Shown: piece by piece, positions 1,033-56,052 of the stretch
Numbering within the stretch: the stretch's first letter is position 1
How the letters are laid out: each line of letters begins with the position of its first letter
Origin: an uncultured Actinomycetes bacterium
Lineage (GTDB): Bacteria; Actinomycetota; Thermoleophilia; Gaiellales; Gaiellaceae
DNA: 64,000 nucleotides
Assembly (NCBI GenBank): GCA_963792245.1
Contig: CAWBVO010000028.1
Location: 3,103-67,102 of the forward strand
Reading direction: 5' to 3'
Notes under the pieces: model-generated
The model's database searches: none
What the model saw: only the letters and a program-made list of their open reading frames with translations
What the model was told of the DNA's origin: nothing
Program-made: the position numbers and the translations under genes

Positions 1033-1884
1033 TCAGGTCGCGAGGCCGATCGCCACGAGGATCGGGACGAGGATCCAGCAGCCGAGGGTGAGGCCGACGG
1101 AGACGATGACGAAGGTGCGCGCCGAGTCCTTCGGCGGGTTGCCGCACCAGCCGATCGTCCGCCACAGCGCGTTCAACGGGCCCCGGGTGGCGAGGCGGAT
1201 GCGCCGTGAGGCGAGCGCCGCGCCGCGCAGGATGACCCACGATGCGGCGAGCGCGATGAGCATCCCGGCGATGCCGATCGCCGCCGCGACCCAGGTGCGC
1301 GAGAGGATCCCGGTGATCCGCCCGAGCGACGCGACGAGCGGGATCGCGGCGCCGCCGAGGAGGAACGCCGGTAGGGCCAATTCCTTCGTCTCGAGCGCCG
1401 CGACCATGCGGTCGGCGTCCATCCGCGCCCGGCGAAGCTCCCGGCGCTCCTGGGTGCCGGGGGTCGCCTGGATCTCCCGCAGACCGTAGAGGTTCCGAAG
1501 CCGGGTCGAGACGTTCCTGATGTGCGACACGACGAGGTAGCGGGCCACGAGCTGGACGCCCCAGGCGATCCCGGCCCGCAGTGGGCCGGTGCCCCTCCCC
1601 GCCGTCGTCCCGTAGTACCCGTGGCGGGCGAGGGACTCGAGCGCCTCCGCCATGTTGCGGTGCGCGACCGGGAACCGGTCGGGCTCGGCGAGCGGCCGCG
1701 TCCGAGCAATCTCGCGCATCATCTCGCGCTCGCGCGGGCTTGTGACCTCGATCGCGTCGAGGAACTTCGCGAGGTCCTCGTCGTTCTCCGAGAGCAGCTT
1801 CAGCCGCTCGATCGGGTTGTCGCCCTCCTCGAGTATCCCGTCTTCGGCGTCGACGGAGCCGGGGTCGGACGGCTTGGCTGCCAT
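1033..1884 (-). CDS. hypothetical protein: charged N-terminal domain plus C-terminal TM helices
   Basis: Protein-like from MAAKPSDPG (ATG 1884); helical acidic N-terminal part and about 3 hydrophobic segments at the C-terminus. Confidence 0.72.
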   Translation of the reverse strand: MAAKPSDPGSVDAEDGILEEGDNPIERLKLLSENDEDLAKFLDAIEVTSPREREMMREIARTRPLAEPDRFPVAHRNMAEALESLARHGYYGTTAGRGTGPLRAGIAWGVQLVARYLVVSHIRNVSTRLRNLYGLREIQATPGTQERRELRRARMDADRMVAALETKELALPAFLLGGAAIPLVASLGRITGILSRTWVAAAIGIAGMLIALAASWVILRGAALASRRIRLATRGPLNALWRTIGWCGNPPKDSARTFVIVSVGLTLGCWILVPILVAIGLAT

Positions 1885-1952
1885 CTTCGCGCCCACGATA
1901 CGACATCGTCGCGGCGGCGTCGAAATCAGTCGTCGAGGCACGAGCGCGGCCA

Positions 1953-2115
1953 TCAGCCGGCGGAAGGCGCGGCGCGGGTCGACGTCCAGAAGGCGACGAC
2001 CAGCGTCACCGAAAGGATCGCGTCCCTGATCAGGCGCGCCCAGGTCGTCTCCGACACGACGATCGCGACGACGAGCCACGCGAACAGCAGCCCGCCAGCC
2101 GTCGAGCAGGAGCAC
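1953..2115 (-). CDS. possible small membrane protein (start uncertain, possibly frameshifted)
   Basis: The frame ending at 1953 encodes GGLLFAWLVVAIVV...LIRDAILSVTLVVAFW (two hydrophobic stretches). The only nearby start (GTG 2115) is one base out of frame. Confidence 0.3.
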
Positions 2116-2235
2116 CGGTCGCCGTTACGGGCCTTGCCGGTCGATACCGGGACGGCGGCGAGCGGTTCAGGACTCCCGCCGATCTGCCGACTATCGTCTG
2201 GGAGACCACGGGAACGACTCAGGAGGACCGCCGGC

Positions 2236-3180
2236 GTGCCAATCACGTACCAGTACGAGACCCTGGCAACGCTCAGGGAGCGCGCGAAGGCCGAGGTCGG
2301 CAAGGTTGTCGTCGGTCAGGGCCGCGCGGTCGAGCTGCTGCTCATCGCCGCGATGGCACGGGGCCACGTCCTGCTGGAAGGCCCTCCGGGCACCGCCAAG
2401 ACGCTCCTCGGCCGCGCGACGGCATACGTCCTCGGCGCGGACTTCAACCGTGTCCAGTTCACCCCGGACACGACGCCGAGCGAGCTCGTCGGCGTGACGA
2501 TCACGCGCGCGGGCGAGACGAAGTTCATCGAGGGGACGATCTTCACCAACGTCCTGCTCGCGGACGAGATCAACCGCACGCCGCCGCGCACCCAGGCCGC
2601 GCTGCTCGAGGCGATGGCCGAGCGGAGCGTCACGGTCGAGGGTCGCGTGCACCGCCTCCCCGACCCGTTCCTCGTGATCGCCACGCAGAACCCGTTCGAG
2701 CAGGAGGGCGTCTTCCCGCTCCCGGAGTCGAACCTCGACCGGTTCCTGTTCAAGATCTTCATCGACTACACGGACCTGGAGCACGAGGTCGACATGCTCC
2801 GGCTGCCGCACACCGGCGTGACGCCGGACATGCTCGGCGAGATCATGCCGCTGCTCGGGATCGTCGGCCTCGACAAGGCCCGGGTCGAGCTCGACGCGAC
2901 GATCGTGCCCGAGGAGGTCGCACGGTACGTCGTGGGCGTCGTGCGGAAGACGCGCGTGCTCGAGGGCGTCATGCTCGGCGCCAGCTCGCGCGCCGCGATC
3001 CACCTCATGAGCGCCACGAAGGCGAACGCCCGGCTCGAGGGGCGCGACACGGTGATGATCGAGGACGTGCGGACGATGGCGCAGTACGTGCTGCCGCACC
3101 GGCTGATCTGCGAGGAGGACGTCACGCCGGCCGAGGCGCTCCAGATCGCGCTCGACCACCCGATCCTGTCCGAGCCGTAG
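2236..3180 (+). CDS. MoxR-family AAA+ ATPase
   Basis: GHVLLEGPPGTAKT Walker A, RVQFTPD, LLADEINRTPPRTQAALLEAM Walker B, ATQNP..EG.FPLPE..LDRF; AGGAGG RBS before GTG 2236. Confidence 0.93.
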   Translation: MPITYQYETLATLRERAKAEVGKVVVGQGRAVELLLIAAMARGHVLLEGPPGTAKTLLGRATAYVLGADFNRVQFTPDTTPSELVGVTITRAGETKFIEGTIFTNVLLADEINRTPPRTQAALLEAMAERSVTVEGRVHRLPDPFLVIATQNPFEQEGVFPLPESNLDRFLFKIFIDYTDLEHEVDMLRLPHTGVTPDMLGEIMPLLGIVGLDKARVELDATIVPEEVARYVVGVVRKTRVLEGVMLGASSRAAIHLMSATKANARLEGRDTVMIEDVRTMAQYVLPHRLICEEDVTPAEALQIALDHPILSEP

Positions 3181-51138: not shown

Positions 51139-51816
51139 GTGCCCGCCTGGGCAGAGCCCGTCGTCCGCTACATCCTCGAGGTGGGGCTGCCCGCGACCCT
51201 CCGCGTCTCCGCGATCGCGGTCGTCGGGAGCACCGCCATCGGGATCGTGCTCGGAACGCTGTTGACGGTGCACAGCACGCTGCTGCGGGCGCCCATCCGC
51301 GCCTACCTCGAGGTGTTCCGCGGGCTGCCGATCCTCGTCACGGTCTTCATGGTGTACTTCGGCCTCCCGGCGATCAACAGCTCGCTCGAGTTCGGTCCTC
51401 TCACGGCGACGGCGATCGCGCTCATCCTCTGGGGCAGCGCGCAGGTCGCCGAGGCGACGCGGGGGGCTGTCCAGTCGATCCCGAGGGAGCAGCACGAGGC
51501 AGCCGCCGCGCTCGGCTTCGGGTGGGTCGGGCGTCACCGCTCGGTGATCCTCCCGCAGGCGCTGCGGAGGCTGCTTCCGCCGCTCGTCAATCTCCTCGTG
51601 AACATCATCCAGAACTCCACGCTGGCGGCGGTGATCGGCGGCATCGAGCTCCTCCAGGCAGGCAAGTCGCAGAGCGAGCGGCTGACGTTCTACCCGCCAG
51701 CCGGGATCGGCGAGATCCACGCGTTCGAGATCTTCGCCTTCATCGCGCTCGTGTTCTTCCTCATCTCCTTCCCGCTGACACGGCTCGCCGCGTACCTCGA
51801 GAAGCGGCTGGTCTGA
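51139..51816 (+). CDS. amino-acid ABC permease
   Basis: YLEVFRGLPILV, AEATRGAVQSIPREQHEAAAALG, QNSTL; GTG 51139. Confidence 0.92.
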   Translation: MPAWAEPVVRYILEVGLPATLRVSAIAVVGSTAIGIVLGTLLTVHSTLLRAPIRAYLEVFRGLPILVTVFMVYFGLPAINSSLEFGPLTATAIALILWGSAQVAEATRGAVQSIPREQHEAAAALGFGWVGRHRSVILPQALRRLLPPLVNLLVNIIQNSTLAAVIGGIELLQAGKSQSERLTFYPPAGIGEIHAFEIFAFIALVFFLISFPLTRLAAYLEKRLV

Positions 51817-51834: not shown

Positions 51835-52656
51835 TCACGCTCCGGCGCGGCGCAGCAGGATCGAGCGCGAGATGCCGTCCGCCCAGCCCTTCGTGCCCTT
51901 GACGACGACCCGTACCCGGTCGAGGCCCGGGGGCAGCGCGAAGCGCACGCGCGAGCGGCCGTCGAGACGGCCGCGGGCGATCGCCCGCCAGACGAAGTGG
52001 TCGCGGTCGTAGGTCTGGAGCACCGCAGTCGCGCCCGGGCGCCCGGGCGCCGCGCGGGCGCCCACGCTGCTCGCCGCGTGGACGACGGCGACCGCAGGGC
52101 GCACCTGCACGCGCACCGCGGGGCTGACGAGGCTCCCCGCGGCGGCTCTGAACGTCTCCGGTACCGGGACACCGACCCCGACGGCGAAGCTCCCGTCCGC
52201 ACGGGGATGCACGGTCTGCGAGGCGCTCCCGCCGCGGAGCGTCACGGTCTCGGTGCCGGGCGGCGCGAGGCCGGCGAAGACCACGCGATCGCCGGTGGCG
52301 ACGGGTCCCTCGGGGCCGGACAGGACGAGCCCGAAGACGTCGATCTCGCCCTTCATGAACTTGTGGATCGTGCAGTGGAATGCATAGCGGCCCTGCTTGG
52401 TGAAGGTGAACGTGAACGACCCGCCGGGCGGCAGGTAGCCGGAGGCGAACGCGTCACCGTCCGCCGTGGCGGTGTGGTTGATCGAGTCGTCGTTCTTCCA
52501 CGTCACCGCGGTGCCCACGAGGACCGAGATCTGTGTCGGGTCGTAGAACTTCCCGGGCATCGTGATCGTGCGTGTGGGCGCGTCCGCCGACGCGGCGCCC
52601 GTCGCGAGCACGAGCCCCGCCAGGACCGGGAGCACCGGCAGCAAGCGCCTGCTCAC
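51835..52656 (-). CDS. secreted cupredoxin (amicyanin/plastocyanin-like) fused to a beta-rich C-terminal domain
   Basis: Signal MSRRLLPVL...AASA; type-1 Cu ligands NHT ... FHCTIHKFM; GTGA overlap with the oxidase stop. Confidence 0.85.
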   Translation of the reverse strand: MSRRLLPVLPVLAGLVLATGAASADAPTRTITMPGKFYDPTQISVLVGTAVTWKNDDSINHTATADGDAFASGYLPPGGSFTFTFTKQGRYAFHCTIHKFMKGEIDVFGLVLSGPEGPVATGDRVVFAGLAPPGTETVTLRGGSASQTVHPRADGSFAVGVGVPVPETFRAAAGSLVSPAVRVQVRPAVAVVHAASSVGARAAPGRPGATAVLQTYDRDHFVWRAIARGRLDGRSRVRFALPPGLDRVRVVVKGTKGWADGISRSILLRRAGA

Positions 52657-53612
52657 CGCGTCACCCGGTAGATGCCGATCATCCCGTTCATCATGTGGCT
52701 CTCGACGTGGCAGTGGTAGAGCCACGTCCCCGGTATGTCCTCGCGCCAGCGGATCTTGTAGCTCTCGGCCGGCCCGATCACCTGCGTGTCGCGCGGGCCG
52801 TCGGCCGTCATCCAGCGGTGACCGTGCACGTGGAAGGTGTGGAAGTCGTCGCCGATCGCAAGCACGTCCCACTGGACAAGGTCGCCGACCTTGGCCCGGA
52901 ACACCGGTGTGTTCCCGACGAACGCCCTCCCGTTGATCGTCATGAAGCCGAGATGCGACGACAGGTAGACGACGAACTCGTGGTCGGGCGCCTGCTCGTT
53001 CGGGCCGAGGATCGAGAGCGCCCCGTAGAGACCCCCTTCGATCGACGCGGTCATCGAGGGCGAGTGGTCGTGGTACGGCCAGACTCCCACGGACTGCGGC
53101 TCGGCGACCAGGCGGTAGGTGAAGGATTCTCCCGGCTTCACGTTGGCGCCTGGTCCCGAGAACCCGGGGATGTACGCCCCGTCGGAGCCGAACCGGTATC
53201 GCACGCCGTGGAAGTGCATCGAGTGCGGCAGGTTGTTCAGCGTGTCGAGGTTCTGGAAGTGGACGAGGATGGTGTCGCCGACCCGAGCGTGCAGGAGCGG
53301 GCCCTGGATGCCCTCGTCGCCCGGCTGCTTGCCGACCGGCTTCGCGAAATCCTTCGTGTACTGGCGGTAGACGACCGTCTTGAACACGGTCTTGTCCGGT
53401 GTGAAGCTCTCGCCCTCGATCGCGTTGCGCCCGTTCGGGACGACGTTCCACGTCACCGGAACGGCGGCCACCCAGTACTCGCGGACGTGTCCGGTCGGCG
53501 CCGACTCGCCCGCGGCGATCGACGTGAGCGCACCGGTGCCGGCGACGACGAGCGCGGCGCCGGCAAGGGCCGCGAGCGCGAGCGCCCGCGGCCCTGACCG
53601 ACGGAGCCTCAC
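52653..53612 (-). CDS. two-domain multicopper oxidase (small laccase / type B 2dMCO-like)
   Basis: Domain 1 SMHFHG and YHDH (no T1 Cys); domain 2 HTFHVHGH and YHCHVESHMMNGM; N-terminal export signal with RR. Confidence 0.9.
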   Translation of the reverse strand: MRLRRSGPRALALAALAGAALVVAGTGALTSIAAGESAPTGHVREYWVAAVPVTWNVVPNGRNAIEGESFTPDKTVFKTVVYRQYTKDFAKPVGKQPGDEGIQGPLLHARVGDTILVHFQNLDTLNNLPHSMHFHGVRYRFGSDGAYIPGFSGPGANVKPGESFTYRLVAEPQSVGVWPYHDHSPSMTASIEGGLYGALSILGPNEQAPDHEFVVYLSSHLGFMTINGRAFVGNTPVFRAKVGDLVQWDVLAIGDDFHTFHVHGHRWMTADGPRDTQVIGPAESYKIRWREDIPGTWLYHCHVESHMMNGMIGIYRVTR

Positions 53613-54703
53613 GGCGTGACGACGATCGTCCCGTTCATGTCGGGACCGTGGATCCAGCAGAAGTACTTATAGGTCCCGGGCGTCGTGAACGTCACGCGGG
53701 ACTGGCGCGAGAGCCCGGGGATCGGGGCGCCCGCGGAGATCGGCGTCGCGAAGAAGCCGTTGCCGTGCGTGGTCGCGCCGGCGTACGTGAGCGGCTTTGC
53801 ATCGGTCCCGTAGGGGACGATCGGCGTGACCTGGTTCGGCGCAGTGGGGCCCGCCGGGAGCAGGTCTGTCTTCTTCCCCCACTGCTCGAGGTACTTCTTC
53901 GGCCCGAAGGTGATGTTGTGGACCTCGCTCGACGACTTGGTCACGAACGTCACCGTGGTCCCGGCCTTGACCTTGAGCACCTTCGGGTAGTAGGCGATCA
54001 TGGCGACCCCGCCACCGACGCCCATCGCGACGGTGTTGGGGGCTGCGATCTTGGTGTTGTTCAACGCGATCGCCTTCGGGTACGCCGCCGTCTGCAGTTG
54101 CAGCGCCTGCGCCTTCACCTGGTCGGGCGTCTTCGGCACGGCCGAACCGGCGGGCTTGACGACGACCGTCGCCTTCATGCCGGGATGCAGCGTGCAGAAG
54201 AGGCGGTACGTGCCCGGTTTCGGGAACGCATAGGTCGCCGTCGCGGCGGGCGACTTCGGCCCCTGCGGGCCCATGGCGCCGCTCGAGACGGGTGTCGCAC
54301 CGGAGATCGTCTTCGGCCCGAACGGCCCGAACGCCTGCGGGTTGTAGATCAGCTTCGGGAGGTCGTCGAAGTAGAACGGCTGTCCGGCGGCGTCCATCAA
54401 CCCGGCGTACGTGCCCTTCTCCGGATCCGGGACGAGCAGCGGGATCGGCCTCGGGTTGTACGTCACCGAGTGGAAGGAGTTGCTCGCGAAGGTGACGCTG
54501 TCCCCGGCCGCGATGACGAGCCTCGACGGCAGGAATTGGTTGATCGTGCCTGGGATCTTCCGGAGGTTCGCTGGTGGTTTGGCGAACTCGCCGAGATAGA
54601 CCGTGTACGTGGTGGTCGCCGCCTGCGCGTGATGGGCCGACAGCGCGACACCCGGTACCGCGAACGCAACCACAGCGACGCACGCGATGAGAACCTGCTT
54701 CAT
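53609..54703 (-). CDS. secreted protein with two cupredoxin (type-1 Cu) domains
   Basis: Sec signal MKQVLIACVAVVAFA...AQA; site 1 FHSV...FCTLHPGM, site 2 VHNI...FCWIHGPDM; GGGGGG RBS; ATG 54703. Confidence 0.87.
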   Translation of the reverse strand: MKQVLIACVAVVAFAVPGVALSAHHAQAATTTYTVYLGEFAKPPANLRKIPGTINQFLPSRLVIAAGDSVTFASNSFHSVTYNPRPIPLLVPDPEKGTYAGLMDAAGQPFYFDDLPKLIYNPQAFGPFGPKTISGATPVSSGAMGPQGPKSPAATATYAFPKPGTYRLFCTLHPGMKATVVVKPAGSAVPKTPDQVKAQALQLQTAAYPKAIALNNTKIAAPNTVAMGVGGGVAMIAYYPKVLKVKAGTTVTFVTKSSSEVHNITFGPKKYLEQWGKKTDLLPAGPTAPNQVTPIVPYGTDAKPLTYAGATTHGNGFFATPISAGAPIPGLSRQSRVTFTTPGTYKYFCWIHGPDMNGTIVVTP

Positions 54704-54773
54704 TCGATTCGCCCCCCTTGGGCTCGACGATCTTTCGTCTGGTCCACGCGCTGCCTGCCGCCGCGCACGGGCG

Positions 54774-54802
54774 ACTATGGACCTCCCGTCGGACGGATGC
54801 AA
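54774..54802 (-). promoter_or_regulatory. sigma70-type promoter of the copper operon
   Basis: TTGCAT-17 bp-CATAGT, about 70 nt upstream of ATG 54703. Confidence 0.5.
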
Positions 54803-55097: not shown

Positions 55098-55304
55098 TCA
55101 GGCGCGAGCCGGGACCCGAACGGCGACGGCCGGGGCGAAGGGGCGCCCGCGCTGGAACTCGACCGTGATCGGTTGATCGTGCGCGACGCACGTCCCCCCC
55201 ATCGTGAGGGTCATGCATCCGGCCGCGGGACAGACGGTGAGCATCGACCCGTGGGGGAGGAGCCCTGGCGCAAGCATCTCGGTTCGCGTGTGACGTTCGA
55301 GCAC
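55098..55304 (-). CDS. small Cys/His protein (C-x4-C-x8-C-x2-H)
   Basis: TAGACT -10, GGAGG RBS and GTG; CPAAGCMTLTMGGTCVAH. Confidence 0.6.
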   Translation of the reverse strand: MLERHTRTEMLAPGLLPHGSMLTVCPAAGCMTLTMGGTCVAHDQPITVEFQRGRPFAPAVAVRVPARA

Positions 55305-55599
55305 GGCGGCACCTCCAGACGGCGGGAAACGAGTCTACCCGACCGTCCGCGACAGGCAACCTCCGCCGAAGACGGTCGAAGCGCTTCCCGGGCCCGGGGC
55401 AGCCTCCTCGTCGGTCCCACACGGCCCGATCGACGGACGCAGGGAGCAATCGATGTCCGGGACGAACGGTCCGTCCAACGAGCACCCGCACCTCGGCGCG
55501 CGTCCCTCGATCGAGGGAACCCGATAGCGCGAGCGCGAACCTCCGGCTCTCGGTCCATCATTGGGGCCTACGCGCGTCGTCGACGAGAGGGGATTCACG

Positions 55600-56052
55600 A
55601 TGAAGCTCAAGGTGTTGGCGGTTGGTCTCTGTGTTGTCGGCCTCGCCGGCTCCAGCGCGGTCGCCGCTCCACCGCCCGGGAAGGGGAAGCCCGAGACGAC
55701 GGGCAAGCCGGCCGCGACCGGTTCCAAGCCGTCGCCGACCGGGCCCAGCTGCAAGCCGAAGGTCACGGTGGTGCTGAAAGGCAAGCTCACGAGCGCCTCC
55801 GCGGCGTCCCTCGCCATGAGCGTGACGGGGTCGAACCGGTGGGGCCAGGCGTGGAAGACCCTCGGCACCGCGACCGTCGTGGTCGACACCGAGACGAAGG
55901 TTCGCCGGAACGGTCAGAAGCTGGTCTCCGATCTCGTTGCGGGCGACTGGGTGCTGGTGCAGGCACGCGCATGCAAGGCAGACCTCACCGCGGCAAGCGC
56001 GCCAACGCTGACCGGCGTGCACGTGGTGGCACACCCCGCCAAGGCCGCCTAG
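55600..56052 (+). CDS. secreted hypothetical protein (OB-fold/DUF5666-like)
   Basis: GAGAGGGG RBS; signal MKLKVLAVGLCVVGLAGSSAVA; V.VDTETKVRR....L..GDWVLV pattern. Confidence 0.78.
   Translation: MKLKVLAVGLCVVGLAGSSAVAAPPPGKGKPETTGKPAATGSKPSPTGPSCKPKVTVVLKGKLTSASAASLAMSVTGSNRWGQAWKTLGTATVVVDTETKVRRNGQKLVSDLVAGDWVLVQARACKADLTAASAPTLTGVHVVAHPAKAA

Follow-up and report, generated by a model that had tools for sequence, protein, structure and literature searches.

In a 64,000-nucleotide stretch of DNA from an uncultured bacterium of the Gaiellaceae (assembly GCA_963792245.1, contig CAWBVO010000028.1), referred to here as the window and with a G+C content of about 70%, we analyzed a group of three genes encoding copper proteins. 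The genes, termed A, B, and C, are head-to-tail open reading frames (ORFs) on the minus strand, spanning 54703..51835. Gene A (54703..53609, minus strand) starts with ATG and encodes a di-cupredoxin of 364 amino acids (aa); gene B (53612..52653, minus strand) starts with GTG and encodes a type-B two-domain multicopper oxidase (2dMCO) of 319 aa; and gene C (52656..51835, minus strand), also with a GTG start, encodes 273 aa in which a cupredoxin is followed by two immunoglobulin (Ig)-like domains. The A/B and B/C junctions both read GTGA, each start codon overlapping the preceding stop codon by 4 nt, which bears out the coupling through GTGA overlaps claimed in an earlier note made from this sequence. 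Translational coupling of three copper proteins with intact type 1 copper (T1) sites is thereby supported by the sequence, and the triad is probably made from one transcript. The translations contain every motif quoted in the earlier note: A has CTLHPGM and CWIHGPDM, B has HCHVESHMMNGM and YHDH, and C has CTIHKFM. The four T1 sets and the trinuclear histidine set that it listed as intact are all present and nearly all invariant across homologues. Hydrophobic, signal-like N termini, together with low model confidence (predicted local distance difference test [pLDDT]) over the N-terminal ~26 residues, suggest that the triad proteins are exported.

Protein A matches the Pfam family Copper-bind in two stretches and is composed of two paralogous, extended T1 cupredoxin domains (approximately aa 30 to 185 and 220 to 364) with a long helix between them (aa 193 to 215). 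Its two halves are 29% identical (E value of 2e-8), and each carries a His...Cys-x2-His-x2-3-Met set, namely H78/C170/H173/M176 and H262/C349/H352/M356. Among 32 homologues, the His, Cys, and His ligands of both sets are invariant, and at least 90% retain the axial residues M176 and M356. In NCBIfam, the plastocyanin and amicyanin matches of A and C all fall below threshold. A single-chain AF2 model of A was obtained with a pLDDT of 87 and a predicted template modeling (TM) score of 0.81, and a structure search of the PDB returned no di-cupredoxin arranged like A (TM score of ~0.2). A Sec-type signal peptide is predicted, as read from the sequence, at aa 1 to 28 (54620..54703, minus strand), with likely cleavage between AQA and A; the pLDDT of the model is below 50 over aa 1 to 26. 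A lipoprotein reading based on LIAC (aa 5 to 8) was rejected, this motif being too near the N terminus and unconserved beyond close relatives. The second domain also contains an invariant histidine outside the four T1 ligands, H313 (approximately 53765-53767 of the window, minus strand), within a conserved T-H-G-N-G-F motif, and it could bind an additional metal or belong to a surface used for electron transfer or docking.

Protein B is made up of the Pfam domains Cu-oxidase_3 (aa 102 to 204) and Cu-oxidase_2 (aa 224 to 317). Four HxH pairs, HFH, HDH, HVH, and HCH (H133/H135, H181/H183, H261/H263, and H300/H302), supply the eight histidines of the trinuclear center, and a T1 set, H258/C301/H306/M311, lies in domain 2; all 12 of these copper ligands are invariant in 75 homologues. 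As domain 1 has no Cys and the single T1 site is in the C-terminal domain, B is assigned to type B, like the Streptomyces small laccase SLAC. This agrees with the SLAC-type classification in the earlier note, as do the HxH pairs and the laccase matches: a sequence search of the PDB aligned B over its full length with two-domain laccases (9ix9 at 2.9e-34, 8aip, Ssl1, and SLAC itself, 3cg8, at 1.7e-27), and the archaeal structure 9cck, considered below, was not among the best 60 PDB matches. Ceruloplasmin was rejected as the nearest relative because its E value of 1.6e-51 is reached only when three repeats are added together; unit for unit, bacterial two-domain laccases reach 122 bits versus at most 79 for ceruloplasmin. 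Unlike in SLAC, the mature N-terminal strand motif of B, HVREYWVAAVPVTWN, aligns specifically with the start of the A-domains of ceruloplasmin and factor V.

Membership of B among the copper resistance oxidases (CopA/PcoA and CueO) was likewise rejected. Its NCBIfam matches to CopA, laccase, NirK, and CueO are all subthreshold, and the relevant scores are far below their cutoffs (copper_res_A, 64 bits versus 479; CueO, 32 versus 525); no Met-rich insert of the CueO kind is present in B, and no copB/C/D, cueR, or cus genes adjoin it in the 80 related loci described below. SLAC is exported by the twin-arginine translocation (Tat) pathway. Tat export of B is not supported, since a classical TRRxLL motif is found in just one (L043) of approximately 60 readable N termini, and with signal peptides that are mostly not twin-arginine, copper would be inserted outside the cytoplasm. 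The homologue in question (5848-6846 of L043), with the signal TRRQLLTGAGAAG, also lacks both cupredoxin neighbors; from this single case we draw no conclusion. The label "manganese oxidase" that JGI attaches to some B homologues is an automatic name and was not used as evidence.

Protein C comprises a signal peptide, an amicyanin-like T1 cupredoxin (aa ~27 to 110), and two Ig/fibronectin type III (FN3)-like beta-sandwiches (aa ~111 to 265). The Pfam families Cupredoxin_1 and Copper-bind cover only the N-terminal ~110 residues, and no Pfam family reaches threshold in the tail; weak precomputed matches to CarboxypepD_reg occur in two C homologues. Of the T1 set H61/C95/H98/M101, the residues H61, C95, and H98 are invariant in 60 homologues. 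The axial Met is replaced in some C homologues: one subclade has Ile at this position (CTIHPGITGE), and a distant subfamily has Val (CKIHSLVRG). A noncoordinating axial residue usually raises the T1 potential, as in fungal laccases and ceruloplasmin, and the sequences suggest that these swaps reflect lineage-specific tuning of the redox potential. Proteins of the Ile type were seen in the A1 alignment and at L029, L035, L038, and L062; those of the Val type are the C-like genes of L085-L097.

The closest solved relative of the C cupredoxin is the pendant cupredoxin of Nmar_1354 from the archaeon Nitrosopumilus maritimus (phmmer, 1.1e-15). When the AF2 single-chain model of C (pLDDT of 92) was searched with Foldseek, its cupredoxin matched the Nmar_1354 structure 9cck (34% identity, root mean square deviation of 2.9 Å), 5fc9, which is a purple cupredoxin of N. 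maritimus (TM score of 0.78), and amicyanin (TM score of ~0.7 on the target), while whole C matched tandem Ig/FN3 proteins, with the tail resembling PTP-delta Ig-Fn, SiiE, and C3 MG domains. This C-terminal tail (51838..52326, minus strand) forms two tandem Ig-like sandwiches in the model, with an all-beta DSSP strand pattern. The earlier note had taken the C-terminal beta domain to be a surface tether, which does not hold up: no transmembrane segment, lipobox, or sorting motif was found, and the two sandwiches appear soluble. Some C homologues end in His-rich tails. One homologue (P0147, 369 aa, on a 1.25-Mb contig) has Cu-oxidase_2 in its precomputed Pfam list; it could have arisen by natural fusion of C to the end of B, or else it is an artifact of a frameshift or of gene calling.

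The three genes recur together as a conserved module. Relatives of B were sought in one genome per species, yielding at least 575 loci; neighborhood counts given here refer to the best 80 of these, with genes called by a simple caller based on the G+C content of third codon positions and with the taxonomic labels of the metagenome-assembled genomes (MAGs) taken as given, the window's own class being Thermoleophilia by MAG titles. The 80 loci are nearly all from MAGs labeled Gaiella, Gaiellales, Solirubrobacterales, Thermoleophilaceae, or Thermoleophilia, the closest B proteins being 91 to 93% identical; odd labels such as Streptomyces, Burkholderiales, and Nocardioidaceae are probably binning errors. 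The full cupredoxin-MCO-cupredoxin/Ig order on one strand is found in 59 of the 72 loci with enough flank by a strict gene-caller count, and tblastn adds triads that the caller overlooked. By tblastn and ORF clustering, nearly every one of the loci has a C-type gene as the next gene downstream of B. The gene upstream of B encodes either an A-type di-cupredoxin (34 loci) or c2 (31 loci), a protein of ~185 aa that is a single-domain relative of the domains of A with a conserved H...C-x2-H-x2-M set; two genomes (L045 and L059) have two tandem A genes. Overlaps of 4 nt recur at 22 of 36 A-B junctions and 44 of 67 B-C junctions. Apparent natural fusions of A with B or of B with C (L058, L070, and L036) were dismissed as gene-caller or frameshift artifacts. 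The flanking genes vary by lineage instead of being conserved, which indicates that A, B, and C travel as a unit.

A second, more distant subfamily, with B proteins 40 to 48% identical, is organized as a small T1 cupredoxin (~130 aa), the MCO, and a cupredoxin with one Ig-like domain, usually with the addition of a NosD-like right-handed beta-helix protein. The latter, of ~450 to 480 aa and with Pfam matches to NosD, Beta_helix, and pectinesterase-like families, was seen at L084-L092 and L095-L097 (e.g., L087:5538-6893, minus strand, and L085:2025-3470, plus strand). Co-occurrence of the three genes elsewhere, which the earlier note proposed as a check, is thus strongly supported by the 59 loci, the recurring overlaps, and this subfamily. 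A gene for a SCO1/SenC chaperone (Pfam, 2.2e-23) adjoins the triad in 5 of the 80 loci (L015, L025, L032, L037, and L063; e.g., L032:3918-4490, minus strand), and in L025 it takes the position of the upstream cupredoxin. The earlier note had also pointed to the lack of adjacent copper resistance genes, and this extends beyond the window: the 80 loci show no conserved gene for a Cu-ATPase, CopZ, CsoR, or CopC/D beside the triad, and the CsoR of the window's genome sits on another contig.

At a threshold of E ≤ 1e-60, 62 of the 401 genomes sampled from the window's class (~15%) contain a B relative, including 2 of 12 in its own genus, with a patchy spread across families; among 371 genomes sampled from other classes of Actinomycetota, there were none. 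Soil metagenomes also contain many homologues of B and C, all annotated in general terms ("FtsP/CotA-like multicopper oxidase," "manganese oxidase," and "plastocyanin"). The triad is widespread in Thermoleophilia and uncharacterized.

Upstream of gene A, we considered how expression of the operon might be initiated. The earlier note assigned one shared promoter, TTGCAT-17 nt-CATAGT (54774..54802, minus strand), and this assignment is weakly supported. A -10-like element, (C/T)ATAGT, is kept in eight close relatives at the same distance from the ATG of A, but the -35 element is not conserved in the same upstream alignment, the candidate agrees with the consensus at 7 of 12 positions, and a promoter scan did not report it; a shared promoter is accordingly plausible rather than demonstrated. 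Directly downstream of the -10-like element, and ahead of the Shine-Dalgarno sequence of A, lies a 24-nt block, GCGCGGCGGCAGGCAGCGCGTGGA (54743..54766, minus strand), which is nearly invariant in eight of nine aligned upstream regions and could be an operator or a hairpin of the 5' untranslated region or leader (UGCGCG...CGCGUG). The Shine-Dalgarno-like sequence itself, AAGGGGGG (54712..54719, minus strand), is 8 nt upstream of the ATG, and its GGGG is invariant in the alignment. The 860 nt upstream of A hold no confident gene; Rfam gave zero matches in this gap, the GCGCGGCGGCAGGCAGCGCGTGGA block included, and a riboswitch or known RNA there was rejected on this basis. No intrinsic terminator was found at the locus.

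Around the triad, an amino acid ABC transporter converges on it from the downstream side, its last gene ending at 51816. Upstream of A and on the same strand is an ORF of 68 aa (55098-55304, minus strand) with a Cys/His pattern, CPAAGC...GGTC.AH, and no match in Pfam; homologues of 66 to 98 aa, termed c18, occur upstream of the triad in the Gaiellales loci L003, L004, L005, L008, L010, and L012. A divergent ORF of 163 aa (55561-56052, plus strand) has a signal-like N terminus, a Pro/Lys/Gly-rich linker, and a weak DUF5666 match (0.0089) and is not kept beside the triad elsewhere.

The same genome encodes further copper and redox proteins. A second 2dMCO, at L082 (G000:C6:28695-32348; ORFs 1489-2478 and 305-1492, both minus strand), is of type C, resembles 3GDC (2e-100), and matches the core of Nmar_1354 at 2e-55. 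Its gene overlaps one for a ZIP-family (ZupT-like) permease, an arrangement that mirrors the pair of MCO1 and ZIP permease described in ammonia-oxidizing archaea. A NirK-like protein of 391 aa is encoded at L083 (G000:C8:23101-26415, ORF 1063-2238, plus strand) and scores 176 bits for Cu_nitrite_red against a cutoff of 296. Counting B, the genome has three enzymes of the trimeric cupredoxin type, which is reminiscent of the copper toolkit of archaeal nitrifiers. About a dozen c-type cytochrome matches were also found in the genome.

When these results are placed into a functional context, we consider that there is about an even chance that the triad encodes an oxidase that is secreted and served by blue-copper redox partners of its own. 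B would then be a homotrimeric type-B 2dMCO whose trinuclear center reduces O2 to water, and A, with two T1 sites, and C, with one, would serve as dedicated one-electron carriers that feed the T1 site of B. Through its Ig-like tail, C would probably keep its cupredoxin on, or close to, the trimer of B. Candidates for the primary reductant are small inorganic species (among them Fe(II), Mn(II), Cu(I), and NH2OH), phenolics, and cytochromes, the cytochrome matches in the genome leaving room for a donor of the last kind. A redox role is favored by the invariance of the T1 His/Cys/His ligands in all three accessory cupredoxin domains, with Met swapped only for Ile or Val. Such a change of the axial residue is known to tune the T1 potential without destroying the site.

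A precedent is available in Nmar_1354 (PDB 9CCK), an archaeal 2dMCO of the MCO4 lineage with an extra metallated C-terminal T1 cupredoxin on a 15-residue linker, whose pendant T1 is 13.5 Å from the oxidase T1 in the crystal structure (PMC11761707), near enough for electron transfer. It can be hypothesized that the triad is the split equivalent of this fused pendant cupredoxin. As the C cupredoxin is homologous to the pendant domain, which sits so near the oxidase T1, the relay gains indirect support. An electron relay is thus plausible in view of the strictly retained redox-type ligand sets, the deeply conserved gene order and coupling, and the archaeal fusion.

Several points weigh against a relay of this kind. 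The T1 sites of type-B 2dMCOs face the central tunnel of the trimer (PMC13151041), and docking of a protein partner could therefore be hindered. The upstream cupredoxin gene is absent in approximately 10 of 76 loci. The core of Nmar_1354 is of type C and groups with the other MCO of the genome, not with B, and because the two cores are of different lineages, the fusion precedent covers the cupredoxin only. Finally, MCO4 genes are the most induced by copper limitation in Nitrososphaera viennensis (PMC7785015), which points to copper handling rather than catabolic electron flow. The reading given in the earlier note, a secreted copper operon acting as an extracellular relay, can be kept as far as the operon, its copper sites, and co-occurrence are concerned; its promoter is weak, and its tether is unsupported.

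A bolder version may be speculated upon, in which the triad is the bacterial split counterpart of the archaeal cupredoxin-assisted 2dMCO and forms an extracellular copper-only wire that oxidizes a specific inorganic reductant with O2. Electrons would pass through the two T1 sites of A and the one of C before reaching the T1 site and trinuclear center of B, and the reductant might be hydroxylamine, oxidized to HNO and N2O as by Nmar_1354, or else Fe(II)/Mn(II) in mineral or dissolved form. We hold this version to be improbable; were it true, heterotrophic Thermoleophilia would have an unrecognized role in soil nitrogen or metal cycling.

Among the alternatives, copper homeostasis or acquisition survives best, although we judge it unlikely. 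Here, B would be an extracytoplasmic cuprous oxidase, A and C would bind, shuttle, or redox buffer copper, and the operon would respond to copper, in excess or in limitation. Many bacterial MCOs (CueO, CopA/PcoA, and MmcO) are indeed cuprous oxidases; B itself lacks a CueO-like Met-rich insert and scores far under the NCBIfam cutoffs for CopA, CueO, and CopI. The strong induction of cupredoxin-bearing MCO4 genes by copper limitation fits this alternative, as do the SCO1/SenC genes beside 5 of the 80 triads, the His-rich tails of some C homologues, and the mostly non-twin-arginine signals of B, with copper insertion outside the cell. The genes that normally accompany copper handling tell against it, with Cu-ATPase, CopZ, CsoR, and CopC/D not conserved nearby and the genome's CsoR on another contig, and so does the chemistry, as His2Cys(Met) T1 sites serve electron transfer and not exchangeable copper trafficking.

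A further alternative is that A and C are structural or maturation subunits, which assemble, metallate, or stabilize B or form a fixed hetero-oligomer with it, rather than mobile carriers; MnxE/MnxF with MnxG and CutF/CutG with CutO would be the models. Tight translational coupling suggests stoichiometric coproduction, the Ig-like tail of C resembles a protein-protein interaction module, and the probable Sec export of B implies extracytoplasmic metallation. Members of the NosD family act in cofactor assembly in N2O reductase systems, and a NosD-like protein accompanies the distant subfamily; this protein, the SCO1/SenC neighbors, and the signals of B give an assembly or maturation role some weight. 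An MCO operon with maturation factors is reported in cutFOG (PMC8456105). However, the known maturation factors (CutF, Sco, PCuAC, and NosL) are not T1 cupredoxins, and complete T1 ligand sets kept in three domains are hard to explain for a pure chaperone, which makes this alternative decidedly doubtful; if fixed subunits also carried electrons, it would merge with the proposal of dedicated redox partners. Least likely of all, and in our view very improbable, is that the cupredoxins have other partners, such as the NirK-like enzyme or a respiratory complex, and simply share a transcript with an ordinary phenolic-oxidizing small laccase: the NirK-like gene and the dozen or so cytochrome matches could supply partners, and SLAC-type enzymes do oxidize phenolics without protein partners, but the triad and its overlaps are kept over deep divergence while the flanks change, and presence in only ~15% of the class genomes does not fit a core respiratory carrier.

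If the proposal of a secreted oxidase with cupredoxin partners is correct, its significance would lie in several areas. The usual view of MCOs is that they work alone, drawing their electrons straight from small substrates. To our knowledge, protein redox partners of MCOs are rare, and the archaeal MCO4 enzyme, from 2025, is the only structurally documented cupredoxin-assisted 2dMCO that we know of. A conserved triad that gives a type-B 2dMCO three extra T1 sites would show cupredoxin assistance to be more widespread, and its hosts belong to one of the most abundant uncultured actinobacterial classes of soil. The physiological role of type-B 2dMCOs has been called poorly understood (PMC13151041), and the triad could point to one. 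Should the substrate be hydroxylamine or a metal ion, there would be a bearing on soil N2O or metal cycling. As three small soluble proteins, A, B, and C would also offer a tractable system for T1-to-T1 electron transfer between proteins.

Comparison with known systems helps to place the triad. In domain order and ligand pattern, with T1 in domain 2 and a trinuclear center predicted to be interfacial, B is like SLAC and other Streptomyces small laccases and like type-B 2dMCOs such as CjMCO of Cellvibrio (E values of 1e-27 to 3e-34). SLAC-type enzymes are stand-alone and act on small substrates, whereas B is encoded in a triad with cupredoxin genes. Nmar_1354 shares with the triad the pairing of a 2dMCO with an extra T1 cupredoxin, its pendant domain being homologous to that of C. 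It couples NH2OH oxidation to O2 reduction with release of HNO, and the MCO4 lineage has been called unique to ammonia-oxidizing archaea (PMC11761707). In contrast to this fused arrangement, the C cupredoxin is encoded by a separate, translationally coupled gene that carries two Ig-like domains; B ends at its own stop codon, with C in another frame, and no true fusion was found in the 80 loci. The core of Nmar_1354 has its T1 site and HCH motif in the N-terminal domain, groups with type-C enzymes such as 3GDC, and is related to the L082 MCO of the genome, whereas B is of type B, and Nmar_1354 has no counterpart of the di-cupredoxin A. With oxidase cores of different lineages, the argument from the fusion is limited to a functional pairing of cupredoxin and 2dMCO and does not extend to orthology.

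Other operons offer partial parallels. In Nitrosomonas europaea, the type-C 2dMCO NcgA is reportedly cotranscribed with two c-type cytochromes and NirK as ncgABC-nirK, in work ascribed to Beaumont et al. in 2005 and Lawton et al. in 2009. Like the triad, this joins a bacterial 2dMCO to small soluble redox proteins; unlike in the triad, the partners are cytochromes c, the MCO is of type C, and the context is nitrite tolerance. The Mnx complex (MnxE3F3G) of Bacillus sp. PL-12 combines an MCO with small operon-encoded accessory proteins, and cutFOG of Rhodobacter capsulatus reportedly combines one with maturation factors. In these, the accessory proteins bind copper or serve maturation and are not T1 cupredoxins, and the MCOs have six domains (MnxG) or three (CutO). 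In Sideroxydans lithotrophicus, the uncharacterized genes Slit_1812-1818 encode several cupredoxin-domain proteins (two with MCO motifs), a SCO1/SenC protein, and an adhesin/lyase-like protein of the beta-helix type and are induced on a solid Fe(II) mineral (magnetite). Likened by gene content alone, this cluster echoes the SCO1 and beta-helix neighbors of some triad loci, although it includes a cytochrome and its host is proteobacterial. Full-text literature searches retrieved no description of the triad, so the statement in the earlier note that it knew of no described 2dMCO operon of this architecture holds within these searches, with the MCO4 fusion, ncgABC-nirK, MnxEFG, and cutFOG as partial precedents. 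What is new here is a type-B 2dMCO with separately encoded cupredoxin partners.

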